A stretch of 32,000 bases of DNA from Candidatus Saccharimonadota bacterium (GTDB lineage Bacteria; Patescibacteriota; Saccharimonadia; Saccharimonadales; UBA4665). Position 1 is the stretch's first letter, and each line of letters starts with the position of its first letter. Made by a program: the position numbers and the translations under genes. A model generated the notes under the pieces. It saw only the letters and a list, made by a program, of their open reading frames with translations, was not told the DNA's origin and searched no databases. Positions 1,703 through 22,741 of the stretch are shown here, one piece after another. The DNA is taken from contig CP064992.1 of assembly GCA_016699935.1 (NCBI GenBank), positions 330,001-362,000 on the forward strand. Reading direction: 5' to 3'.

Positions 1703-3689
1703 TCAGTTTTCGTCGCGCATGTCACGAATGGGGTTGCGCCGAATATTGGTCATCAGCGGTAAAACTGTGCTAAGTATGGCGGCCGCGGCAATCAAACAAA
1801 TGATTATTGCGGCGTACTGAAAATCAAAACCGTAAAAACTAAACTGTTTGTGAATGTCACTGGCGTTGTAGGCTAGAACCGCTGAAACCGATGCATCGGG
1901 TGAGAGTTTATTGCTAAACAGCAGAGCAGCAGTCGAGCCAATGATAAACGAGATTAAAACTATAAAAACACCAATAAATAAGCTGTACGTTAGGTATATT
2001 TGTGCGATGGCGAAACGTGTCGCACCGAGCGCCCGGAAAACAGCAGTCTCGCGTCGACTGTCGGCAATTATTTTGCCTACTATTCCCATGAGTACCAGGC
2101 TAGCTATCACAAGTACTACTGGCGCAACGTATCGCATAACCTTCCAAACCCCCCGGCGCATATCTTCGATGGCGCTGGCGTTGTTTCCGAAGGGTGATAT
2201 ATCAAAATATTTACCCATTTTGTAGCAATCAACGACACGGGGGTCGCTCTGCCCTGGCTTGGGTATGCCTGGTGATGAGCTAAACGTAACCTTACTATCA
2301 CAGCTGTTTTCTTTGGCGAATTGTTTGGCCGCAGTTAAGCTGGCAAATTCTGCATAGTATGTTTTCTCAGCATTTGTTTTTTGGCAATATTGGGCTGGAT
2401 TTTGTCGGCAATAGAACCTTCGACTATCGCTTCTGTCGGCGAAAACCATCCTCCCCTAGCCCTGTCTTTAGGACGCTTTCTATAATGCTGCGAGCACTGA
2501 AGCCTTGCTGGAACGATAAATCCTGGACAAATCCGACAACCCTTACTTTTAGTATTCCCTGTGCTGGTTCCTGGTAGTTTTCGTACTGCTTTTTGAACGC
2601 AAGTTCATAGGCTGCTTGTTTCTTCTCTTCATACGAGCGAGTGTCTTTTTTGACGGTTACTTCACCACACGGATCAATCGGTATGGCATATTGTAAACTG
2701 GGGGCTGTGTAGTTTGCTTTACCCTTGTTGGCAGCAATCTCTTTGGCCTGATTTTTTACTTGTTCGAGCAAACCAGAGCTAGTGCCATTGCGATAGCATA
2801 GCATTGTTGTTTTGCCGGCTATGTCTCTACGAAGTGTTACTAGTCTGTCGAGTCGTTGCTGGGTTGTCGCTGTGGCTGGTAAACTTGGCAGACCCAACAT
2901 TTGCTCGGCAGCGCTTACTGGGGCTAGCACTGGCACCTCTCCATCTTTGCCTAAAGCCAAGTTCTGACCGGGTAAAACAAATGGTGTCATCAAACTACTA
3001 TCGAAATAAGTCCAGCCCGAAGTTGTCAGAGTGGCGACACCTCTTGGCCCATTGAAATTATTTCCACCAGATTGATCTATGGCTTGCTCTTTGCCGTCAA
3101 TGATTGGAACAACAGATGTCATCCCAGCATCCTGTGACATGCCGAAATTAGCCGTGTTGACACCACCGGAGCTTCTGTATAGCTGTTTTGCGCCTGCTTT
3201 ACTTGCCAGCTTCGAAAAATCGTCAAAACTAATGTGTTCAAGGCTTTGGACATACGAGTCTAGAGCCGCTTTTGTTTCTGGGTAGCTATTATTTAGGAAG
3301 TAGTCTGTGCCGCCACTCTCATTTTTATATTCGCTAACAGGCAAATTCATGTCGTTTGCTGGATCATAGTTTTGATTTAGTCTTTTGGCGGCCGCCTTTT
3401 TTTCTGCCTTTAGTGTTACAGTTCGTGCTTTGAGGTTTTCGAATATTTCTGGAGTTCCGGTATTCATGATCATACCGTCAACTATGGGTCGCCCTTGGAC
3501 GATAAAACGACTGCCAAGTCCTTCGCTGCCAAAAGATTGTGCACTCCGTGCTGCACCAGTTAGCATAGAAAGTATTAGAACTATACCGGCAAAAAGAAGT
3601 GAGGCTATAAACAAGATTATTCCAGTCCGAATCCGGTGAGTACGCAGTTTGGCTGCCGCCAACTGGACGCTATCGCGAAGCGTCATCAT
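1703..3689 (-). CDS. MacB/FtsX-type ABC transporter permease, split into two ORFs by one frameshift
   Basis: ORF 2424..3689 (421 aa) has an N-terminal TM helix and a large extracytoplasmic domain. ORF 1703..2449 (248 aa) has the C-terminal FtsX-type TM bundle (...FRALGATRFAIAQIYL...). They are consecutive parts of one permease in different frames. The two frames are simultaneously open only at 2427-2455 (contains GGTTTTC on the minus strand). The start ATGA-overlaps the stop of the upstream ATPase (3686-3689). Confidence 0.8.
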
Positions 3690-4672: not shown

Positions 4673-5610
4673 TTAGCTCTCTATCAATAGTGCCGTACTG
4701 CGAGCAATCCGAAACGAATAACCTTTCGCGATATCTACCTGTGAATTGTTACGGCCAGTACGCATAGCCACGTCTAAACGAAATATGAGTTTTGATGTCA
4801 CTCCTACTGAGGTATGCCGGCGAATCCACTCGGCCAGGACTTCGCGGGCTACATCTTTGGTAGCTCGCGGTACCGTTCGCGGTCGATATTTACTGTGGTT
4901 GTATGCTGTACCAAATATTCGTCGACGAGACTATGAATGGCATCGTTCAGCTCGGCTGCTTTCGCACTGTGTTCGAGCAACTTTGCTCGGGCTTTTTCGT
5001 CGAGTTTCGTAACGATATGTTTGCGAATGTAGTTGCGCAAGTACGTTTCGTCGGCATTGGTACTGTCTTCGCGCCAAACCAGATTGTGCGAATGGGCATA
5101 AGCTCTTATCTGTTTTTGGTCATCCCAAGTAAAGGACGCCGTACGAACTGATTTGAACGCAGTGAACTAAGCCCCTACTTTTTTGTACCGCGCAGCCAGT
5201 TAATGATGATCGTTTCAAGCACATCATCTTCGTGGTGTGCCGTGATGATAGCATCGGCGCCAACTGCCTCTTTCACCCTTGAGAGAAACGCGTAGCGCGC
5301 TTCCCGCGCTACTGCTTCACTCGCACCAGCGCCAAGCTCCGCCCGGTCATACACAAACGGCAACCCGTATTGCTTGGCAAGTTTTTGCACCAGCTTCCTA
5401 TCCTCCACTGAATCAGGCCGAATGCCGTGGTCAAAGTGAGCCACCGTGAAAAAGTATGAGGAACGGGGAATAGGGAATAATGACCTTTTGTCCTCATTCT
5501 TCGTTCTCCGTTCTTCGTTCACTTTTGCATCAAAAGATGCAAAAGAACGACTGAGTCCACACCCCGCTCACCGCCACCACGTACCGCCCACCTGGTAAAT
5601 CTATTTCCAT
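4673..5610 (-). pseudogene. tilS: tRNA(Ile)-lysidine synthase TilS, disrupted at >=5 positions (or heavily mis-called assembly)
   Basis: The frame-restored minus-strand reading starts MEIDLPGGRYVVAVSGGVDSVVLLHLL (PP-loop SGGxDS). It continues ...TVAHFDHGIRPDS...ITAHHEDDVLETIIINWLRG...RPLLGMTKKQIRAYAHSHNLVWREDSTNADETYLRNYIR... and ends with a C-terminal domain at TAA 4673-4675. ORF-track pieces are 5175..5522 and 4849..5040. Lesions: C4 5562-5565, T4 5523-5526, in-frame TAG 5175-5177, T5 5113-5117, and a shift near 4850-4860. Confidence 0.8.
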
Positions 5611-5659
5611 ATACTATAATTATACTCGTCAAACATAATTCTTTGGAAACGATGTAAAA

Positions 5660-6172
5660 ATGAAGCAACTATATTTCATACGCCACGGGCAGAGTGAGCT
5701 CAACAAACGGAAAATTTTGGCCGGTCATACCGACACGCCACTTACAGCCAAGGGACGCGAGCAAGCCAAGGCAGCCGGGAAGGGTGCTCATGGCTTAGCC
5801 ATTGATTGCATTGTGTCGTCACCACTGAGCAGGGCGCATGAGACGGCTCAAATTCTGGCACGCGAAATTGGTTTTCCACCAGATACAATTATTCTGAACC
5901 GGCTGGTCATAGAACGTACCTACGGAGAGCTGGAAGGGACACCGTGGGATACTGAATCGCACATAGACGACGTCGATGGAGTTGAAACATTAGCAGAAGT
6001 ACTAGCACGCGCCCATGAAACCCTGGCATACGTTCGTTCGCTCCCGTATGAAAATATCCTCATAGCCAGCCATGGCACATTCGGGCTCGCTCTCTTGGCT
6101 GCTATCCGTAATGAAGCGACATTTCAAGACGTTGACGGCATACCGAACGCAGAAGTAATTCGAATCATCTAG
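5660..6172 (+). CDS. Histidine phosphatase family protein (phosphoglycerate-mutase-like)
   Basis: 170-aa intact ORF. The N-terminal catalytic RHG motif (LYFIRHGQSELN) and the later ...SPLSRAHETA... and ...ASHG... blocks are typical of the family. Confidence 0.85.
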   Translation: MKQLYFIRHGQSELNKRKILAGHTDTPLTAKGREQAKAAGKGAHGLAIDCIVSSPLSRAHETAQILAREIGFPPDTIILNRLVIERTYGELEGTPWDTESHIDDVDGVETLAEVLARAHETLAYVRSLPYENILIASHGTFGLALLAAIRNEATFQDVDGIPNAEVIRII

Positions 6173-6221
6173 CCACTCATATTTGGCGGTGCTATACTAG
6201 TAAGTACAAGCGAAACCAAAC

Positions 6222-6986
6222 ATGGAAAAAGATATCATCATTTTACTCGTGGGCATAGTTGTTGGCGCCATGAATGCAATTGCTGGCGGCGGCATGCTCA
6301 TTGGCTTCCCGGTGCTCCTCAGTCTGGGCGTACCGCCACTGGTTGCAAACATCACAGCCAACATCATTACACCCCCTGGACAAATTGCCGCTGTCTACGC
6401 GTATCGGAGCTACCTGCGCCGCGTACCGAAACGATATATCCTCATTTTGCCGTTTGTGGCAGTTGGCGCACTAGCTGGCGCACTCACACTCCGCGCCATG
6501 CCTGGCAGTAATTTTGCCGATATGGTTCCGCTCCTCATTCTTTTCGGGGTAGCTCTCTTTGCATTTCAACCGTCATTGCACCTTCACTTACATAGTCACC
6601 TACATGGTCGCAAGAAAACTTTGCTCCCAATTTTGCTTATAGGACTAGCCCTCATGCCGATCACGTTTTACGGTGGGTTTTTCGGCGCTGGCTACGGGTT
6701 TATTATGCTCGCGTTTCTCGGCCTCGGGAAAGTCCACGAGGTTCACATGCTCGCTGCTATGAAAAATGTCTCGGCCATACTAGTTTCTCTCATTTCTATC
6801 GCCGTTTTGTATTCGACCGGGCTCGTTGACTGGCATATTGGCTTAGTCATGGCCGTAGGCACAACTATCGGCGGCTACTTGGGTGCGCATGCCGCAAAAA
6901 GGGTGTCGTCGTACTGGCTTCGCATAGCAGTCATTATCATCGGCCTTGCCGCCGCCACTCACCTCGCTTTGAAGAACTACTCCTGA
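6222..6986 (+). CDS. TauE/SafE (DUF81) family anion-export membrane protein
   Basis: 254-aa intact ORF that is polytopic and Gly-rich. The N-terminal helix VGAMNAIAGGGMLIGFPVLL is characteristic of TauE/SafE permeases. Confidence 0.8.
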   Translation: MEKDIIILLVGIVVGAMNAIAGGGMLIGFPVLLSLGVPPLVANITANIITPPGQIAAVYAYRSYLRRVPKRYILILPFVAVGALAGALTLRAMPGSNFADMVPLLILFGVALFAFQPSLHLHLHSHLHGRKKTLLPILLIGLALMPITFYGGFFGAGYGFIMLAFLGLGKVHEVHMLAAMKNVSAILVSLISIAVLYSTGLVDWHIGLVMAVGTTIGGYLGAHAAKRVSSYWLRIAVIIIGLAAATHLALKNYS

Positions 6987-7482: not shown

Positions 7483-8476
7483 CTAGATGTGTAATACCGC
7501 AATAAGCGTGTTCACCGATGTTTCGAGCGAAAAACTAGACCGAGCTATGGCACGTTCTTTTTTAGTTGCAGCACCGAGCGCCACAGCCTGGTCGATTCCG
7601 TTGAGTAGAGCCTTTGGATCACGCGGCTCAACCAGTGTCAGTAAGCCGCAATTCGTCTCAGGAAGGCCGCCAAGGTTACTCGCTACGACCCGACAGCCGG
7701 CATGCTGCGCTTCTATAGATAGCATTCCAAATGGTTCAGCATAGACTGACGGTACTACTAAGATGTCACTGCGACTAAGGAGCCCAGCCATACTTAGCAC
7801 CGTTTTTTGCGGCGGCAACAGTTGGGCGTAGCGATACCCACTCAGCATATGTGCTATCGTCCGGCCTGTCTCCACATGCTGCCCCGCGAGTACGATGCTT
7901 ACTTTGTGGCCATTTTGCTGCATAACCTTGTCGTGCATCATTTCAAGTAGCGTGTATATGCCCTTTTCTGGATGAAGACGACCTGCATACAATATGCGCG
8001 TTTGCTTTGTCTGCTTAGCCCGCTCGACACTGCCAAACACGGGGTCAGCGAAGGGTAGTACGATGTTTATTCGGCTATATGGTATGTCAAGATACAGAGC
8101 CCATTGCTGTGCGCTGTAGATGCTTGTTGCAATGACTATTTTACCCGAGACGTGCTCTTTGTATCTGAGCTTTTCACTTGATTTAGGTATAACGCAGTGC
8201 AAAATAATGGCTGCTTTATGTTTATTTGTATGTGGATAGGCCCGATTCACGAAAACTATTTGTCCTCTTAGGTGCGATAAATCATCGGGAGATTTTAATG
8301 CTAAAAAGGTATATCCTGAAGTCTTTTCGACCGTCACGTGTTCCGTGACCGATTGTGACGACTTGGGCAGCGATACCACGGCGAAGAAGCTCGCGGATAT
8401 GCCCAGCGGTATACGTTTCTGAACCACCTGTCCCTGCAAGCATTGGCTCGCCAAGTGGCCATACAAATGAAATCAT
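7483..8476 (-). CDS. GT4-family (GT-B) glycosyltransferase, one frameshift
   Basis: ORF 8282..8476 supplies the N-terminus (MISFVWPLGEPMLAGTGGSETYTAGHIRELLRRGI). ORF 7483..8466 supplies the rest (ILYAGRLHPEKG...PSVYAEPFGMLSIEAQHAGCRVVASNLGGLPE). The frame switch localises to T4 8324-8327. An AGGAG Shine-Dalgarno lies upstream of ATG 8476. Confidence 0.85.
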
Positions 8477-14892: not shown

Positions 14893-16047
14893 TTGCGGCC
14901 ACTTTATTTTGCGGGTTTTTTGCAAAGTTTTGTACTGTGGTATGCCGTAGAAAACTATTTATGAGGAGTATCGGGTTTGATGATGCAGACATTGGTCTCA
15001 TGGTGGCTGTGTATTCCGCAGCGATGCTGCTCATAGACATACCTTCAGGTTTGTTGGCAGACCGGTGGAGTCGAAAAGGCGTACTCGCGCTTGCCAGCGT
15101 AGCCCTGGCAGGAGCAGCCCTAGTGGGCGGCATGAGTAATAGCATAGAGATGTATCTTTTTGTGCAGTTTTATGGGGGCATTTTACGCTTGCTATTCTGG
15201 TATGTACGAATCCATAGTGTATGACACGCTGGCAGAAGAAAAACAACCTGCTGCACTGTACCGGAAAGTGTACGGTAGGATCCAAATAGCCGACAGTGCC
15301 GGCTTGGTCGCGGGCGGCCTAATAAGCGTAGCTGTATCGACACAACTAGGATTGCGCGAAACGTATTTTCTATCCATACCTTTTGCGCTCCTTTCTATCG
15401 CTGCGTTACTTCGCTTTTCGAGAGCCTAGCCTACATAAGAACGGTGAGCGGCACAGCGTACTTATCCAAATTCGCCGTACCTTTCACGCAATTATCCGTA
15501 ATAACCGTGCGTTGCCAGTGGTTATCTCACTTGTGCTAAAGTCTACCGTGCTGTTTATGATGTTTGAGTTTGCGCAGTTATGGCTGATTGCGCTTGAGGC
15601 ACCAACTGGGTTTTTCGGGTTTGCAGGTGCACTTCTTTACGCGGCAATTGGGTTTGGCGGCTGGGGTGCCCAGCATTTGCACATGGCTTCGTCAAAGCGA
15701 GTCACCGCCACGCTTTTTCTATGCTAATTAGCACGGGCGGGCTCATCGTAGCACAAAACATTGTAGCGGTTGCGCTGCTGCAGTTTGTCTTTGTCGGTTC
15801 GGCAGTCGCGCTCGCCGTGGCGCTCTCAAACATGCTCCATGATCTTCTGCCATCAAACATCCGTGCCAGTGCTGCATCTGCTACTAGCACACTCGGTCGC
15901 CTGCTTATCATCCCTTTCGCCCTGCTTTTTGGCTATGTAAGCGAACAGACCTCAGTCTTTTCCGCCACGTACATTCTCTTGGCTCTCATACTCGGCTTGA
16001 GCTTCTTTGTATGGTTGAGTTTGAAAATATCTAAGCGCACTGAATAA
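14893..16047 (+). pseudogene. MFS transporter broken into >=5 frame segments
   Basis: ORF-track pieces are 14937..15224, 15160..15429, 15383..15727 and 15721..16047, plus an N-terminal piece from TTG 14893. They concatenate to ...RPLYFAGFLQSFVLWYAVEKLFMRSIGFDDADIGLMVAVYSAAMLLIDIPSGLLADRWSRKG... followed by 10-12 TM helices. Frame switches localise to A4 14951-14954, G5 15174-15178, T4 15415-15418 and T5 15714-15718. Confidence 0.8.
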
Positions 16048-16051
16048 TTAT

Positions 16052-16124
16052 CGGGACCAGGATAGCGCTCCGCTTTTCCGCTGCGGCATGCTCGGAATAA
16101 ATTCCTGCGCGTGTCCTCGCTCCA
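16052..16124. repeat. 73-bp direct repeat DR1 (left boundary of the Fic cassette)
   Basis: CGGGACCAGGATAGCGCTCCGCTTTTCCGCTGCGGCATGCTCGGAATAAATTCCTGCGCGTGTCCTCGCTCCA. It is 71/73 identical to 17696-17768 in the same orientation. Confidence 0.9.
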
Positions 16125-16405
16125 TTCACACTGGAACCTTATCTGTAACGAGCTGTTTCGCTGGAAGCAGTTACTAGGTCATTAACTCAGTTACAGTACT
16201 CTGGCAGTCGGGGCTAGGACTGTCCGAGCGTAGCGACTAGGCTTTCTATTCCAGCAACCCACTTCCTCCACCTTAAATACTTATTGTGCTTACATCCTAA
16301 AACAACATATCTTACATGTTTATTTTCTTTATGTATCATACAACAGATTGATATAGACTATTATGCTTACATAATTTATAATGTGGATAACAAAAAGGAT
16401 TAAGT

Positions 16406-17603
16406 ATGACTCACATCAAAGACGCTCATGCAAAGCTATTTACACTTCCTATTCCCTCCTCAATTCAGAGATAGCGGGTCTTGTAGTTCAGCTTGAAACG
16501 CTTAGAGGCAGGAAGCTAAGCGGCACCACTCCTCCATGGATATTCTTCGGGGTCAAAAACCTTTCCAGACGGTGGAGAGTGTGATTTCGACGCATATCGA
16601 GGGCAATAACACTAGTATAGCCGCTTATGTTGAGGCGGCTCGTAATGCAAAGAAGAATATTGACCTCGACCAGAAGATTAAAATGATTCTTAACCTAGAG
16701 AAGGCTCTTAAGGATATCGAGAAGGAAGTCACATCGGATACGGACTTCGATAAAGCTTTCGTTCTTGACCTTCATAAAAAGGTAGTAGATGGTCTAGACA
16801 CATCTCAGGATGGTGAGGGCGACACTCGTCCTGGTGCATACCGAAATGCATTCCGCGCTATACAGAACTCTAAACACGTCCTTCCGCAGCACACAGATGT
16901 CCATGACCACATGGAGCAGCTTATAAAACTAATAAACACTCCAGTGCCTCACGCCATGGAGCTAATCAAAATTGCTATTGTGCACCATAGGCTTGTATGG
17001 ATACACCCTTTTGGTAACGGCAATGGGCGGGTGGTTCGTTTACTAACTTACGCGATGCTGGCAAGGGCGGGTTATATCGACAAGGATGGTGCTCGGCTTC
17101 TAGACCCAACCGCGGTGTTCGGCTCTAACAAACTTACTTACTACGACAAGCTCTCTGGTGCCGACGATCTCAGTGAAGAGGGGGCTAGTGGCTGGTGCGA
17201 GTATATGCTGTCTGGGCTCACCCACGAGATTCATAAAATCGACCGACTACTCGACGGAGACTTTACGAAGCGAGAGATTATTGTTCCGGCAATAACGTAT
17301 GCACATGAGAAGCAGAAGATTACAAAGCTTGAAAGAGATATGCTGATGGTTTGTGTTGAGAAAGACCTGGTTGCTGCAAGTGACTTTCGCGATTTGTTCC
17401 CTGCCAACACCTCTCACGTCCGTATTTCTCAGGTGATTAATAAGCTTAGGGAACAGAACCTTATTGAACCGCAGTTACCAGGAACAAGGAAGTACATGCT
17501 GTGCATGAACAACAACTTGCTTACTACCGGCATACTAAGAAAGCTCGATGAGCATGGCTTCTTGCCACCAATTCAGCCTGGCGTGACGAACCAAACAGTT
17601 TAA
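16406..17603 (+). CDS. Fic family protein (AMPylase-type, class II with N-terminal inhibitory helix, C-terminal winged-helix-like region); two frameshifts in the first ~45 codons
   Basis: The main ORF 16536..17603 (355 aa) has the Fic active-site motif HPFGNGNGRVVR (17004-17039) and the inhibitory S-x-x-x-E-G motif STHIEG (16587-16604). The N-terminus (MTHIKDAHAKLFTLPIPSS... from ATG 16406, then ...EIAGLVVQLETLRGRKLSGTTPP) lies in two other frames. An AAGGA Shine-Dalgarno lies 6 nt upstream of ATG 16406. Confidence 0.88.
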
Positions 17604-17695
17604 TGTCAAACGGTTATATAGTAAACATGACAAAATATTTACAGATGTATTTCAAACAAAAAAGACCCCATTAACTGAAAACTCTTTCTTGGTTG

Positions 17696-17768
17696 CGGGA
17701 CCAGGACAGCGCTCCGCTTTTCCGTTGCGGCATGCTCGGAATAAATTCCTGCGCGTGTCCTCGCTCCA
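17696..17768. repeat. 73-bp direct repeat DR2 (right boundary of the Fic cassette), overlapping a 20-nt copy of the tRNA-fMet 3' end
   Basis: It is 71/73 identical to DR1. 17688-17707 (CTTGGTTGCGGGACCAGGAC) is an exact copy of 17864-17883, which is the last 17 nt of tRNA-fMet plus 3 flanking nt. Confidence 0.9.
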
Positions 17769-17828
17769 CCGAACCAGTGACCACGCACGCGTTCGCGTGC
17801 TAGTCCCAGGTTCGAGGCTTGGCCAAAA

Positions 17829-17868
17829 CCAAGTAAAATACCCTACGAAAGTAGGGTATTTTACTTGG
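17829..17868 (-). terminator. Rho-independent terminator of tRNA-fMet
   Basis: Perfect 18-bp stem CCAAGTAAAATACCCTAC/GTAGGGTATTTTACTTGG with a 4-nt loop. On the minus strand it begins at the tRNA CCA and is followed by TTTTGG. Confidence 0.7.
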
Positions 17869-17938
17869 TTGCGGGACCAGGACTCGAACCTGGGACCTCA
17901 TGGTTATGAGCCATGAGCTGCCGCTGCTCCATCCCGCG
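17866..17938 (-). tRNA. tRNA-Met (CAU), initiator (fMet) type
   Basis: The minus strand reads CGCGGGA-TG-GAGC-AGCGGCA-GCTC-ATGG-CTCATAA-CCAT-GAGGTC-CCAGG-TTCGAGT-CCTGG-TCCCGCA-A-CCA. It has the C1xA72 mismatch and the CGCGGG...CCCGCAACCA ends typical of bacterial initiators. At 73 nt, the anticodon arm looks 1-2 nt short, possibly another indel. Confidence 0.8.
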
Positions 17939-17994: not shown

Positions 17995-18978
17995 TCAAAT
18001 CAGCGCAGCACACGTACCTGGTGAAAATTTCTTGCCCGGTAAACCCGTTATATTGACTGGCTCCCAAGAAAAATTCGCGACTTCGAGTTGCTTTGGCGTC
18101 AACACTTGAGGGCGATACGTTTCACCCATAGGCATCAATGCACCGGCACCAACCCAATATTTTGCGACCGTGGCTTTCGTGGAACCAACCGCCAGTGGCC
18201 GGCCACGTTCAAATGGTTGCGTAAAAGCAATGATTTTATTTGTTTCTGGCGCGTAATAACCTGTTTCGTTACGAGCAAGATAATAGGCCCTGTGCACTAA
18301 TTCGACTTTTTCGCGCCAGAGCGGATCAGCCAACTGCTGTGGTGTTGTACGAGTATTAAGTTCAACAGATGCTTTTGGCTTTCACTTAGTTGGGGTAAAC
18401 CATCTGGGGCGATTTCTCTAGCTTCGATATATTCCGCTCAAGTGAATTCTCGTAGTCCGTACGTGATGCAAACAGACTACCTACACCTGTATGGGTCATG
18501 CGTAAATTGTTGGGCTGAAGAGGTCGTAGGCACGATAGCACCGTATCGCGACTATCGCGATATTTCTTCACGTCTTCTTCAGACACATTGTTGAGTCTGG
18601 GCACAATGTAGTCGTCAAGCAGAAAGTCGAACCACACTCCTGGTTGATATACCTTACAGATCGGTTTTATCCACTGTGTGAAGTACAGGTATGCAAATAC
18701 TTCGCCCAATCTGCCTCTGGTGATTCTTCGAGCCGCCAGAGCTTGTAGCATCCGCCAAAAAACACGATTTTTATCGGCTCATTCGCTGCGACACTAGCGG
18801 CTATGGATTTTTGTATGTGAGCTACATATTCGTCGTTAAGAGTATACTTACGAAACTTTTTGGTCGTGAGCAGTCTATACAAAACATGTGTTAATTCTGC
18901 ACGACTGGCAGGTTTTTCCACCTCTGATGGCAAAGTTATACGTGTAAATAATGATTCTATGTATTCTTGTGCGGTCAT
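17995..18978 (-). pseudogene. Hypothetical protein (~325 aa) broken into >=4 frame segments
   Basis: ORFs 18667..18978, 18386..18751 and 17995..18333 read through as one protein. The reading is MTAQEYIESLF...IKIVFFGGCYKLWRLEESPEADWAE / VFAYLYFTQWIKPICKVYQPGVWFDFLLDDYIVPRLN...LERNISKLEK / EIAPDGLPQLSESQKHLLNL / NTRTTPQQLADPLWREKVELVHRAYYLARNETGYY.... No family was recognised. Confidence 0.55.
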
Positions 18979-19265: not shown

Positions 19266-19730
19266 TTAAGTGCGGTGAAAGAAGAAATCAATCCACGCTT
19301 CGAAATTTTCTTGGTAAAACGGTTTCTTTTTTGCAGGCAGTGTTTTGCCTTCGTCTTTTGGAGCTGCCGCCGTGTTAGCAAGGGCAGCTTCTTTTGACAC
19401 GAGCAGTACTGTCTCGCCAGGGGCCGCGAGGCCAAAGTTCTGTCGAGCTGCCAGTTCACGGTACTGGCTGGTGGTGTAGTAGTTGTTCTCTAGTTTTTGT
19501 GTCTCGTTTTGCAACTTTTTCACCTCATTTTGCTGCTGCAAGCGTGCGACTTGTTGCTGCAACCCGTAGTTGGTCTGGATGGCTTTGGTTCCGCTCCAGC
19601 TTATGAGGAGCACAAGCACCACAAATGCCAGCGAGCCAACATTGCGTACATCGCGCAAACTGAGTATGTAGCCCTTGATGGGCTCTTCATAGCGGTACCA
19701 TGCGTCAACGATGTTTGTCTTAAGCTTCAC
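19266..19730 (-). CDS. Septum formation initiator family protein (FtsB/DivIC-like)
   Basis: 154-aa intact ORF with a single TM (GSLAFVVLVLLISW), a coiled coil LQQQVARLQQQNEVKKLQNETQKLE, and the family-typical YRELAARQNFGLAAPGE. TATACT (19737-19742, minus) lies 6 nt upstream of the GTG start. Confidence 0.75.
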   Translation of the reverse strand: MKLKTNIVDAWYRYEEPIKGYILSLRDVRNVGSLAFVVLVLLISWSGTKAIQTNYGLQQQVARLQQQNEVKKLQNETQKLENNYYTTSQYRELAARQNFGLAAPGETVLLVSKEAALANTAAAPKDEGKTLPAKKKPFYQENFEAWIDFFFHRT

Positions 19731-19759
19731 CCCTCTAGTATACCACCCCTGTCATCTGC

Positions 19760-19765
19760 TATAAT
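19760..19765 (+). promoter_or_regulatory. -10 box (TATAAT) of the tRNA(CAU) locus promoter
   Basis: TATAAT lies 24 nt upstream of the first tRNA nucleotide (19790). It is divergent from the ftsB-like promoter. Confidence 0.5.
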
Positions 19766-19789
19766 CTATCTGGTTTCGCCCTTTGTGAA

Positions 19790-19826
19790 GGGGGTATAGC
19801 TCAGTGGTTAGAGCAGTCGGCTCATA
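19790..19826 (+). other. 5' half of an interrupted tRNA(CAU) gene (acceptor strand, D arm, 5' anticodon stem, anticodon loop to CATA)
   Basis: GGGGGTA-TA-GCTC-AGTGGTTA-GAGC-A-GTCGG-CTCATA. It is 35/37 identical to the start of the intact tRNA at 19936. Its acceptor strand is complementary to 20050-20056, not to the inner tRNA. Confidence 0.75.
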
Positions 19827-19935
19827 TTCGAGGATGCGTGCAGGTGCTAGCACGGAGCACACCGCAGGATTATCCCAAAGGAGCCGCCAAGCGACGACGG
19901 ATAGCTGATGGGTCATTTACAAGCAGGTGTTGTAC

Positions 19936-20011
19936 GGGGGCGTAGCTCAGTGGTTAGAGCAGTCGGCTCATAACTGATTGGTCGTAGGTTCAAGTCCTAC
20001 CGCCCCCACCA
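19936..20011 (+). tRNA. tRNA with CAU anticodon, Ile2 (lysidine-type) or elongator Met
   Basis: GGGGGCG-TA-GCTC-AGTGGTTA-GAGC-A-GTCGG-CTCATAA-CTGAT-TGGTC-GTAGG-TTCAAGT-CCTAC-CGCCCCC-A-CCA. It is a regular 76-nt cloverleaf. The TTGGTC variable region and GGTTCAAGTCC T arm resemble E. coli tRNA-Ile2 (from memory). The class needs a covariance or identity model. Confidence 0.9.
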
Positions 20012-20032
20012 TACCTGATCCTGCCCCACCTG

Positions 20033-20060
20033 CTTGGTTCAAATCCAAGTACCCCCACCA
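20033..20060 (+). other. 3' part of the interrupted tRNA(CAU) gene (T arm, 3' acceptor strand, CCA)
   Basis: CTTGG-TTCAAAT-CCAAG-TACCCCC-A-CCA. TACCCCC pairs 7/7 with GGGGGTA at 19790-19796. Confidence 0.75.
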
Positions 20061-20081
20061 CGAAAGGCGAATCCGCAATCC

Positions 20082-20822
20082 CTAATTGGCGTCGCGGCGT
20101 TTGAAGAGAAGCCATGCGGTCATTCCGGCCACAATTATCCAGCCGAGTACAATCGCCATTGATTTTTCAGGGCTAAATACACCGTCTGTTTTTGCCTGCA
20201 TCATGACACCCTCGAGCGCCATAAATGGCAAATAACCTGCGTTCAACTTTAGGAGCAAGCCCAGCAGCTGTTCAGCTATTGCAGCTCCAAACAAATACAC
20301 TACTATGGAACCGACTTGGTTTCGAATCAAAAGACCGAGTATCAGCGCGTACATGCCGGCGCCCCAAGCATACATGCCACCTCTTGTTAGAATTTCGCCC
20401 CATGGTATGCTTTGCGCACCAAGGCTATCGCCACTTGCCGCCACCCCTATCACACCACTTGCAACACCAACCGCAACGAACAACACGGAACCTCCCAACA
20501 TAATGAGCGAGGCACACACTACTTTAGCAAGTATGACACTAGCCCTCCGCCGGGCGAATGTCAGCGTGTAGTAAATTGTATTGTGGCGATATTCTTGGGT
20601 AATTTGTAGTAAAACTATTATGCCAAGTAAGAAGCTTGTACCCTGCAGGGTCGAAGTGATGAGCCCGGCTGTAAAGGAATTACCTGTGTCACCAGAATGT
20701 TTATAGCCACTGACCCAACCATTCATGAGTAGGACGAGCAACATACCGAGACCAAATATAATATATGTTGAGCGCAGGCTCAAAACTTTACGGATTTCAG
20801 AGCGTAGTGCAGCCAGCATCAT
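20082..20822 (-). CDS. ABC-2-type transporter permease
   Basis: 246-aa intact ORF with six hydrophobic helices. It lies immediately downstream of, and abuts, an ABC ATPase gene (stop TAA 20823-20825, start ATG 20822). Confidence 0.8.
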   Translation of the reverse strand: MMLAALRSEIRKVLSLRSTYIIFGLGMLLVLLMNGWVSGYKHSGDTGNSFTAGLITSTLQGTSFLLGIIVLLQITQEYRHNTIYYTLTFARRRASVILAKVVCASLIMLGGSVLFVAVGVASGVIGVAASGDSLGAQSIPWGEILTRGGMYAWGAGMYALILGLLIRNQVGSIVVYLFGAAIAEQLLGLLLKLNAGYLPFMALEGVMMQAKTDGVFSPEKSMAIVLGWIIVAGMTAWLLFKRRDAN

Positions 20823-21860: not shown

Positions 21861-22741
21861 ATGCAACGCAATCTGTGGGTTCATGCCGAAGCACCAAGTG
21901 AAAACGAGATAAAAGTGCTGTGCAAGCAGTACCAATTGTCTGAGCGCTTCGTGCGCGATGCGCTCGACCGCGATGAAATCCCCAGGCTCGAGACCACTGG
22001 CAAACACAGCCACACCTACGTCATTACGCGCTTTGCCTACCAAACGGATGATGGCAATATAGAGACAGCACCAATACTCTTTGCGCTCGATAGCGAGCGT
22101 CTCATCACTGTCAGCCTCGAAAAACTCCCAAGCATCCAAGACATTCTGCCAGAAGACGCCAATGACGGGGATGGTGGCGATCCGGTACACCTTATGCTCC
22201 TCATTCTGCTCAAAATAGATGCCGACTACGACCGTTTCATCCACGACTCGTCTGGGCAAATCCGCCGCCTGCTTGATCGGCTCGGCACCCGTGAGGTCGG
22301 TACGCGCTCATTCATCCGCTTTGTGCACATAGAAGACGATATGAATGACTTTCTCAGCTCGCTCGTGCCAACCAACGCCACTCTTCGCCACCTGCTCTAC
22401 GAAAGTTCTATCGCTGGTTTTGCCGCTCACCGCGAGCTGGTTGAAACCGTTATACTGAACAACGAGCAGTCCATACAGACGTGCGAAACCAACCTTAAGT
22501 CGCTGAATTCTATCCGTCGCACCTACACCTCATAGGTTCACACAACCTCGATCGTACCATCAAAATCCTCACTATGGTGAGCGTGTTCATTTCTATCCCA
22601 ACCATGTTTTTCAGCATGTACGGGATGAATATCGGCCTGCCCGAGCAGCATAATACACAGGCGTTTGCTGGCCTTATCGTGGTATGTCTTTTCACCGTAG
22701 TCACTGCCTACTTTATCGGCCGCAAAAAACGCATATTCTAA
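21861..22741 (+). CDS. corA: CorA-family divalent-cation (Mg2+/Co2+) transporter, one frameshift before the TM domain
   Basis: ORF 21861..22535 is the cytoplasmic domain. After a 1-nt shift near 22531-22536 the reading continues ...GSHNLDRTIKILTMVSVFISIPTMFFSMYGMNIGLPEQ...FIGRKKRIF*, with the YGMN motif at 22619-22630 and stop TAA 22739-22741. TATACT 21849-21854 lies 6 nt upstream of the ATG. Confidence 0.85.

Follow-up and report, generated by a model that had tools for sequence, protein, structure and literature searches.

A tRNA(CAU) gene nested within a broken tRNA(CAU) gene in Saccharibacteria and the conserved spacer that accompanies it

The closest described parallel to the locus reported here is the tRNA-dependent lysogeny of actinobacteriophages, in which a phage integrates into an essential transfer RNA (tRNA) gene, does not rebuild it and supplies a phage tRNA of the same isotype (Guerrero-Bustamante & Hatfull 2024, PMC10865867). 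That system has been shown experimentally and involves a whole temperate phage with a tyrosine integrase and attP/attB sites sharing a common core of 8-10 bp (PMC10865867). Separated tRNA halves are also found in the split, permuted and multi-intron tRNA genes of archaea and red algae (PMC3218864, PMC3978253). Our locus lies in a stretch of 32,000 nucleotides (nt) from a Candidatus Saccharimonadota bacterium (contig CP064992.1, positions 330,001 to 362,000), called the window below, and consists of a complete tRNA(CAU) gene placed between the two pieces of another tRNA(CAU) gene. A preliminary description knew of no described bacterial case of a tRNA nested in a tRNA, which has to be qualified in so far as tRNA-dependent lysogeny is a described analogue. 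Besides this analogue, two further points were absent from that description: the mirror-image version of the nest, and the conserved nature of its spacer, which has relatives beside tRNA-fMet. Our favoured reading, to which we give an even chance, is that a cassette without an integrase broke the resident tRNA(CAU) gene and supplies the working copy, a recurring route for the replacement of an essential tRNA.

The nested locus in the window

The outer gene starts with a 5' half (GGGGGTATAGCTCAGTGGTTAGAGCAGTCGGCTCATA, 19790-19826, tRNA positions 1-37) that comprises the acceptor 5' strand, the D arm, the 5' strand of the anticodon stem and the loop up to A37, and that ends in CTCATA. Its 3' piece (CTTGGTTCAAATCCAAGTACCCCCACCA, 20033-20060, positions 49-76) holds the T arm, the acceptor 3' strand and ACCA. 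Between the two lie 206 nt of non-coding DNA (19827-20032), which consist of a spacer of 109 nt named X (19827-19935), the intact inner tRNA(CAU) of 76 nt (19936-20011) and a spacer of 21 nt named Y (TACCTGATCCTGCCCCACCTG, 20012-20032), all of them, like the outer pieces, on the forward strand. Y carries a copy of the anticodon-stem 3' strand (CTGAT, 20015-20019), after which 13 nt stand where the five of the variable loop (TGGTC) are expected, and position 38 is altered. All the coordinates and strings of the preliminary description are present in the sequence; a length of about 183 nt, or of 187 nt, for the insert is obtained only by counting 20014-20032 as part of the outer tRNA.

The outer acceptor strands are complementary to each other (GGGGGTA/TACCCCC) and mismatched to those of the inner gene (GGGGGCG/CGCCCCC). 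Moreover, the uninterrupted outer gene, for which a search among relatives had been proposed, is present in L006 (a 1.21-Mb genome) and in L002, at the site and in the orientation of the window; we call it the O allele. Positions 1-37 and 49-76 of these tRNAs equal the two outer pieces (37/37 identities with both for the 5' half, 28/28 with L006 for the 3' piece), and their promoter, leader and trailer are homologous to those of the window, including the trailer after 20060. The earlier claim that the outer pieces are the halves of one distinct tRNA is borne out by this match to an intact tRNA at the same locus.

The inner gene, whose intactness was likewise confirmed, is called tRNA(cat) by ARAGORN and scores 73.5 bits with the Rfam tRNA model RF00005, for which the gathering score is 29. 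It has the same anticodon as the outer gene and is identical to it at positions 8-48; over the 5' half (19790-19826 against 19936-19972) the repeat finder reports 35/37 identities (95%, repeat family D2). Since its best Escherichia coli matches are annotated as tRNA-Ile it is probably the lysidine tRNA-Ile2(CAU). The other two CAU tRNAs in the 32 kb of the window are tRNA-fMet and a different, elongator-type tRNA. The inner gene is presumably the working gene.

As it stands, the outer gene gives only a sub-threshold RF00005 hit of 21.9 bits (19790-19878, the 5' half and the start of X), which can be explained by the fact that the start of X restores anticodon-stem pairs. ARAGORN in intron mode, with relaxed thresholds too, makes no call for it and returns spurious antisense calls only. 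An extended -10 element (TGCTATAAT, 19757-19765, forward strand), in which TATAAT (19760-19765) follows TGC, lies 24 nt 5' of the outer tRNA start and belongs to the outer cassette, as the same box precedes the uninterrupted O allele (ctgctataat in L006, ctggtatact in L002). Inspection of the sequence directly upstream of the inner tRNA revealed no promoter-like site, and the promoter at TGCTATAAT probably drives the whole nested unit.

Group I introns occur in the anticodon loops of bacterial tRNAs, such as cyanobacterial tRNA-Leu and tRNA-fMet and the tRNA-Ile(CAU) of Azoarcus. The break in the outer gene is at the classic position of anticodon-loop introns, the outer acceptor stem is intact, and deletion of 19827-20013 in silico leaves an 84-nt sequence that ARAGORN calls tRNA(cat). 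The approximately 187 nt of 19827-20013 could accordingly be imagined as intron-like, the inner tRNA being excised and the outer halves ligated, which would yield two tRNAs from one transcript. This possibility, one of those listed in the preliminary description, is very unlikely in our opinion. The group I intron core (RF00028) had no hit at E <= 10 in 19600-20200, and in the nested locus and the tRNA-fMet region Rfam (gathering score and E <= 10) returned chance-level hits only, with no intron, ribozyme or small RNA (sRNA) family and no match to the group I or group II models. The joined product would have C38 and an unpaired variable region of 13 nt. In addition, the nested loci of the relatives L033 and L031 are short of parts of the outer T arm, with the T stem incomplete, so that the mechanism would not be general, and no pathway of tRNA splicing endonuclease and ligase for such splicing is known from bacteria.

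Nested, mirror-image and simple loci in relatives

The flanks of the tRNA locus are constant, with a permease gene on one side and a DivIC-like gene (19266-19730) on the other. The ABC-2 permease of the window (20082-20822, minus strand) has homologues only from Candidatus Saccharibacteria/Saccharimonadales; the window is part of a Saccharimonadales (TM7) genome. The 100% match of the permease is locus tag IPL68_02260, and as the next relatives are only about 70% identical in protein, strain-level comparison is ruled out. Exact look-ups with proteins of the window brought up no recorded contig.

The metagenome contig L033, from the Joint Genome Institute (JGI), has the orientation of the window and carries an O 5' half, a spacer homologous to X (X''), an I-allele tRNA identical to the inner gene at 76/76 positions, 20 nt and an O fragment (GTTCAAGTCCAAGTACCCCCACCACCA). 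Contig L031, assembled with MEGAHIT and taken from the European Nucleotide Archive (ENA), is the mirror image, with an I 5' half, a spacer X', a complete O tRNA, 14 nt and an I fragment (CCCTACCGCCCCCACCA), and its orientation and flanks are typical of I-type cassettes. Contigs L032 and L020 (SPAdes) share the left part of this arrangement. An explanation of L020 as an inverted duplication between two permease genes was rejected because these permeases share no more than 52% identity and the true continuation is seen in L031; by this comparison L020 is a chimeric contig, joined to another species inside the O tRNA. Contigs L003 and L034 have an intact I-like tRNA with a 3' fragment of I-like type after it, and both end inside the tRNA. 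In each lineage the broken gene is the one with the flanks and orientation of the native simple cassettes and the intact gene is the other allele; the occurrence of the mirror unit in I-type flanks and orientation (L031, L020 and L032) indicates that the broken gene is native in each case. The nested architecture is real and has happened or been kept in at least three lineages including that of the window, with both allele polarities.

The left junction, after CTCATA(A/T), is identical in the three lineages. The right junction is lineage-specific, the outer 3' piece beginning at tRNA position 49, 53 or 60; it is cut to 27 nt in L033 and to 17 nt in L031, the 5' strand of the T stem being gone in both, and L031 also misses one G from the outer acceptor run. 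Y cannot be aligned with the counterpart spacers of L033 (20 nt) and L031 (14 nt). The only sequence shared by the two junctions is CATA in the window (19823-19826 and 20010-20013), nothing comparable being found in L033 or L031. The invasion of the outer gene by a small element and the relic of a recombination in the anticodon loop, two options of the preliminary description, together come near to these data and to the uninterrupted O alleles, the perfect identity of the inner tRNA to the allele of other lineages and the identical left junction. The duplication of 4 bp (CATA) that had been attached to the first of them did not hold, since the right junction differs in each lineage.

There is no clear target-site duplication in the window, and in each of the three lineages the inner tRNA lies between inverted repeats. 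Those of the window (CAAGCAGGTG, 19920-19929, and CACCTGCTTG, 20027-20036, forward strand) are exact reverse complements, form the perfect 10-bp helix that had been noticed around the inner tRNA, and overlap the 5' strand of the outer T stem on the right. In L033 and L031, too, the inner tRNA has a leader and a trailer that pair, though their sequences are unrelated (duplexes of -19.8, -9.3 and -17.3 kcal/mol in the three lineages). A 9-nt direct repeat, AGTGCATTT, stands on either side of the inner tRNA of L031 (1117-1125 and 1215-1223); besides having a quasi-palindromic sequence and contributing to the leader-trailer helix, it could be a target-site duplication.

A local misassembly or consensus artefact of long-read metagenome assembly, the last option of the preliminary description, would have to account for these loci as well. 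Signs of indel errors are present in the window. Its tRNA-fMet (17866-17938, minus strand) reads GCTC--ATGG and is two bases short of the GCTCGCATGG of every relative, which leaves it with 46.9 bits in Rfam and shifts its anticodon position in ARAGORN; this gap is probably an assembly indel, or else the essential tRNA is damaged. Several open reading frames (ORFs) look frameshifted: three consecutive ones without a Pfam match (17995-18978, minus strand; 112, 121 and 103 amino acids) stand where relatives have one gene of 260-325 amino acids, and the CorA gene (21861-22535, forward strand) covers 223 of 292 profile positions. Such split ORFs and the short CorA result either from sequencing error or from gene decay, and details of the locus that depend on a single base need care. 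Short-read contigs of relatives often break inside this tRNA(CAU), as do L003 (at 4929), L034 (at 1976), L008, L010-L012, L016 and L032, which come from different samples; these breaks are probably due to the duplicated 5' half or to identical tRNAs in co-occurring species. Nevertheless, the same architecture is seen with diverged sequence in three independent assemblies from other samples and assemblers (L033 from JGI, L031 by MEGAHIT, L020 by SPAdes), which makes misassembly untenable as a general explanation, and the two tRNA copies differ by compensatory changes, unlike an artefact. We regard such an origin as extremely unlikely.

Single I-allele tRNAs, 76/76 identical to the inner gene, occupy the locus in L001, L005, L007, L009, L013-L015, L017 and L019, and a metagenome scan added one further locus of the simple type. 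These simple cassettes have their own promoter and the opposite orientation to that of the window. Apart from one T-loop base, O and I are distinguished solely by compensatory changes, at pairs 6:67 and 7:66 of the acceptor stem and in the T stem, from which they are best described as two alleles of one tRNA species. In a comparison of the window (19740-20080) with L001 (4740-4900), L005, L009, L002 and L006, the whole cassette of promoter, leader, tRNA and trailer (about 170-190 bp) was seen in opposite orientations between conserved flanks; each allele has mostly its own orientation, opposite for O and I, with exceptions in L003 and L034. Inverted repeats that would make the cassette an invertible segment were sought around it, and only a weak 9-bp repeat was found, in I-type cassettes. 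X is absent upstream of the tRNA from every simple cassette seen in relatives.

The spacer X and the F elements beside tRNA-fMet

The comparisons of X rest on four sequences, those of the window, L033, L031 and L020, in which the homologues occupy the same junction. The first 90 columns or so are 63-77% identical among the window, L033 and L031, while the four-fold degenerate sites of the permease gene are 24-40% identical (saturated). Within clade beta (L031 against L020) X' is 94% identical, with 7 differences in 114 nt, against 72% at the four-fold sites, and its 29-nt tail is unchanged (29/29).

X starts with (A/T)TCGAG, which in all lineages remakes four of the five anticodon-stem pairs with GTCGG. 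A hairpin module named P3 (19828-19861) follows the pattern GCG..CAG-stem-loop-stem-(C/G)GAGCA, and its stem reads GTGC/GCAC in the window as well as in clade beta, and L033 has CGGC/GCCG closing a GAAA loop. Further on, 19866-19875 can pair with 19898-19906, and a block named B (19889-19917) resembles tRNA positions 22-51, with 21/29 identities, a value equalled by 14 of 1000 shuffles; X closes with a lineage-specific tail (19913-19935; all these parts on the forward strand). The invariant later block GCGACGACGGATA(G/A)CT allows two readings: it may derive by decay from a copy of tRNA positions 22-48, or it may form a helix with GATTATCC in which it is the 3' strand. The spacer had been called hairpin-rich, which does not apply to it as a whole: X alone is no more stable than shuffled sequence (fold z = +0.67) and has one conserved hairpin inside. 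No two-sided covariation was found within the alignment of the 5' half and X (four sequences).

Several interpretations of X were tried and rejected. As coding sequence it has a 24-codon ATG frame that is lost in L031, with mostly non-synonymous changes and a GAGG that abuts the ATG. The register of the P3 hairpin fits neither a K-turn nor a group II domain V, and a pairing of the outer 5' acceptor strand with UUAUCCC in X, hinted at by the sub-threshold Rfam hit, shows no covariation with the CG version in L031.

X has kin about 1.9 kb away. Directly after tRNA-fMet and its terminator hairpin, on the minus strand, the window carries an element of about 141 nt (17690-17830), called F, whose end repeats the final 16 nt of tRNA-fMet and which scores 142 bits with our covariance model R1. 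Homologues follow tRNA-fMet in L001, L002, L004/L018 (a distant lineage), L005/L017 and L031, frequently as tandem groups of two or three in which every element ends in a copy of the tRNA 3' end and a further terminator hairpin; the direct repeats of this 3' end measure 20-23 nt (repeat family D3). About nine copies were compared, structured and of about 130-150 nt: 17690-17830 and 16046-16186 in the window (minus strand), 6627-6774 and 6810-6895 in L001, 5621-5758 in L002, 6449-6600 in L004, 6669-6813 in L005, and 3028-3157 and 3195-3327 in L031. The arms of the long hairpin of F are an inverted and a direct copy of the T-arm region of tRNA-fMet, and F also holds an X-type hairpin module and a variable hairpin. 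Compensatory change on both sides affects 6 of 22 consensus pairs. No Rfam family matched F in the tRNA-fMet region at the gathering score and E <= 10.

The local alignment of X with F scores 18, against 9.5 +/- 1.65 for 500 shuffles. Moreover, a covariance model built from F only hits X in the window (19828-19861, 15.9 bits, E 0.004), in L020 (1062-1096, 30.4 bits) and in L031 (1021-1055, 29.9 bits), the last two scores being inflated by an L031 copy of F in the model whose hairpin is nearly identical to that of X'. These similarities indicate that X belongs to the same family as the F elements. The F units, flanked by repeated tRNA 3' ends, look like the result of serial site-specific integration, and this previously undescribed family may represent miniature integrative elements or else a new small RNA.

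Some observations concern the surroundings of F. Direct repeats of 73 nt (97% identical), corresponding to the 3' part of F, at 16052-16124 and 17696-17768 flank an islet of 1.6 kb with a gene for a Fic/DOC-family protein (16536-17603, forward strand); the islet looks like an island integrated into F that brought a copy of the F 3' end. In L007 a large serine recombinase of 530 amino acids (4991-6583, minus strand; domains Resolvase, Recombinase and Zn_ribbon_recom) abuts tRNA-fMet, and the sequence just 3' of that tRNA (AGAAAGACTTTTCAGG...TTTTTTGTTTGG) recurs in the window after F. In L006 ARAGORN places a tRNA with a four-base anticodon (agtc) at 7483-7557 (forward strand) and assigns it no type.

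The conservation of X could also mean that the nested unit is a functional composite RNA and not a scar. The outer ends would close an acceptor-like helix, X would provide structured domains and the inner tRNA would sit as a side domain on the leader-trailer helix; once it is released, the outer RNA would remain as a two-piece tRNA-like molecule, comparable to two-piece transfer-messenger RNA (tmRNA) or to an sRNA in a tRNA scaffold, of which the F elements would be one-piece versions. Two-piece tmRNA, from permuted genes, is a defined two-piece RNA of shown function. X is indeed conserved far above neutral, the P3 hairpin has compensatory changes across the F and X copies, and the start of X re-forms its four anticodon-stem pairs in every lineage. 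In addition, conservation is perfect in the outer 5' half and in the final 17 nt of the outer 3' piece, next to spacers that defy alignment, the outer acceptor strands pair as TA/TA in the window and L033 and as CG/CG in L031, bracketing helices of differing sequence recur in all three lineages, the L031 3' piece (T-stem 3' strand, acceptor 3' strand and ACCA) is bounded like the 3' end of F, and in the fold of the complete RNA of 271 nt the outer acceptor stem is closed (z = -2.3). However, only the window has a complete outer T arm, so there is no common tRNA-like fold, and the outer acceptor strand of L031 is short of one G. The folding of X alone and the missing two-sided covariation reported above also speak against it, and related lineages commonly have simple cassettes without interruption, which would make the composite dispensable. 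We consider it an unlikely though tenable reading. Slightly more doubtful still is the wider proposal that X and F form a new class of structured RNA within tRNA pieces, the broken halves serving as a scaffold for processing or stability or as a two-piece tRNA-like RNA. If it were true, bacteria would share with archaea and algae, the only cases known so far, a split or nested arrangement of tRNA genes.

Saccharibacteria are presumably naturally competent, and the nests might have arisen without any dedicated element, by homology-facilitated illegitimate recombination after DNA uptake, the tRNA acting as anchor and X being donor spacer. The coexistence of O and I cassettes in related lineages, the inversion or replacement of whole cassettes between conserved flanks, the irregular right junctions and the direct repeat AGTGCATTT around the inner tRNA of L031 would all suit such events, as would the lack of a recombinase gene among the 20 largest ORFs of the window. 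They would not lead one to expect the same left junction and a homologous X in three lineages whose neutral sites are saturated, a kinship of X with elements at another tRNA gene, or the absence of X from the simple cassettes of all relatives. Recombination of this kind is possible for individual events and leaves the shared left junction and the X-F kinship unexplained; as a full account it is, we think, quite improbable.

Origin of the nest and comparison with known systems

The comparisons show that the outer pieces represent the lineage's resident tRNA(CAU) gene, in the window an O allele and probably a tRNA-Ile2, and that it is broken just 3' of the anticodon by about 190-206 bp, the insert being the X module with a complete I-allele tRNA(CAU). 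According to the reading that we favour, in which the insert replaces the tRNA that it breaks, the whole unit would be transcribed from the resident promoter, and the inner tRNA, freed by RNase P and ordinary 3'-end processing, would be the only working copy; the outer pieces would yield no tRNA, the insert thus rescuing the essential gene that it had destroyed. The cassette may be what is left of a stripped integrative element, or it may be non-autonomous and have been moved in trans or by transformation, and if excised as a circle it would carry the junction ...CCACCATA|TTCGAGG... The arrangement would persist because the sole functional copy of the tRNA is inside. An insert of the same allele would be cleanly deleted by recombination between identical repeats, while recombination between the 5' halves of a mixed nest would join an O-type 5' to an I-type 3' acceptor strand (U6-G67, A7xC66) and harm an essential tRNA, so that mixed-allele nests alone would persist. 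Selection against this recombinant with its mismatched acceptor stem may explain the mixed alleles in all three lineages. The uneven outer 3' remnants (from position 49, 53 or 60) and the lost G of L031 fit relics, and the homology of X to tandem mini-elements with duplicated tRNA-fMet 3' ends, an integration signature, supports a cassette.

Several observations weigh against an inserted, replacing cassette. Neither the insert and its surroundings nor the 20 largest ORFs of the window, examined by a domain scan, include a gene for an integrase, a transposase or any other mobility function, and X was not found in any viral contig, phage or plasmid searched: four scans of viral contigs for X motifs and tRNA halves returned nothing or unrelated phage tRNAs only, and blastn of X gave no phage match and, in plasmids, only chance hits of 24-26 nt. 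The left and right junctions have no att (attachment site) core in common apart from CATA, in the window only. Moreover, X and its tail are constrained (94% against 72%; 63-77% against 24-40%) beyond what a dead relic would be, conservation reaches 100% in the outer 5' half and in the final 17-28 nt of the outer 3' piece, beside spacers that defy alignment, the outer acceptor complementarity is retained in both the O and the I versions, pairing between leader and trailer of the inner tRNA recurs with differing sequences in the three lineages, and the retained 3' piece of L031 shares its boundaries with the 3' end of F. The conservation of the outer pieces, the acceptor pairing and the leader-trailer helices can reflect either recent independent insertions or selection on a composite RNA.

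If the insert does replace the gene that it breaks, an essential tRNA gene of ultra-small bacteria of the candidate phyla radiation (CPR) would be replaceable from within, by an insert that destroys it, substitutes another allele and cannot be lost. This would be a natural example of an addictive insertion resembling a toxin with its antidote, would extend the principle of tRNA-dependent integration to a cassette of about 200 bp that encodes no protein, and would offer a possible route for swapping tRNA alleles and their orientation between lineages. The locus also brings to light an undescribed conserved family with a covarying hairpin at tRNA genes, which would be either a new mini mobile element or a new RNA. 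On the practical side, short-read assemblies break at nested loci and the outer gene escapes tRNA finders.

Among known systems, group I introns resemble the locus in that a tRNA(CAU) gene is interrupted in its anticodon loop by about 200 nt. Nevertheless, the insert matches no group I model and is mostly tRNA, and in the relatives the exons are not joinable. The anticodon loop, together with the T loop, is reportedly a usual crossover site of integration in the sublocation classes of Williams 2002. Split and permuted tRNA genes also have separated halves with complementary flanks that bring the pieces together; they depend on bulge-helix-bulge motifs with a splicing endonuclease and ligase, or give a functional two-piece RNA, and none of them is known to have a complete tRNA between its halves.

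Genomic islands and their derivatives that lack an integrase (CIMEs), as in the Islander database (PMC4383910), likewise have ends marked by displaced tRNA fragments, and their tandem accretion leaves arrays of 3'-end copies as the F elements do after tRNA-fMet. A classic island rebuilds its target from the 3' segment of attP, which leaves an intact tRNA and a displaced 3' fragment of the same sequence. Here, in contrast, the 5' half is displaced too, the intact tRNA is a complete foreign allele and the insert is non-coding; the displaced 5' and 3' fragments are of the other allele and have no core in common.

The likeness to tRNA-dependent lysogeny is that DNA is inserted in an essential host tRNA gene without rebuilding it and that the host would depend on the insert. 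In the window the region of positions 38-48 of the outer gene is altered and the tRNA is not rebuilt, uninterrupted genes exist in relatives, and a replacement tRNA of matching anticodon is inside the insert. The insert is, however, only about 200 bp long, with no integrase or phage genes and no common core at its junctions. A further difference is that the replacement tRNA stands directly inside the broken gene and uses its promoter, and that the host is a CPR bacterium.

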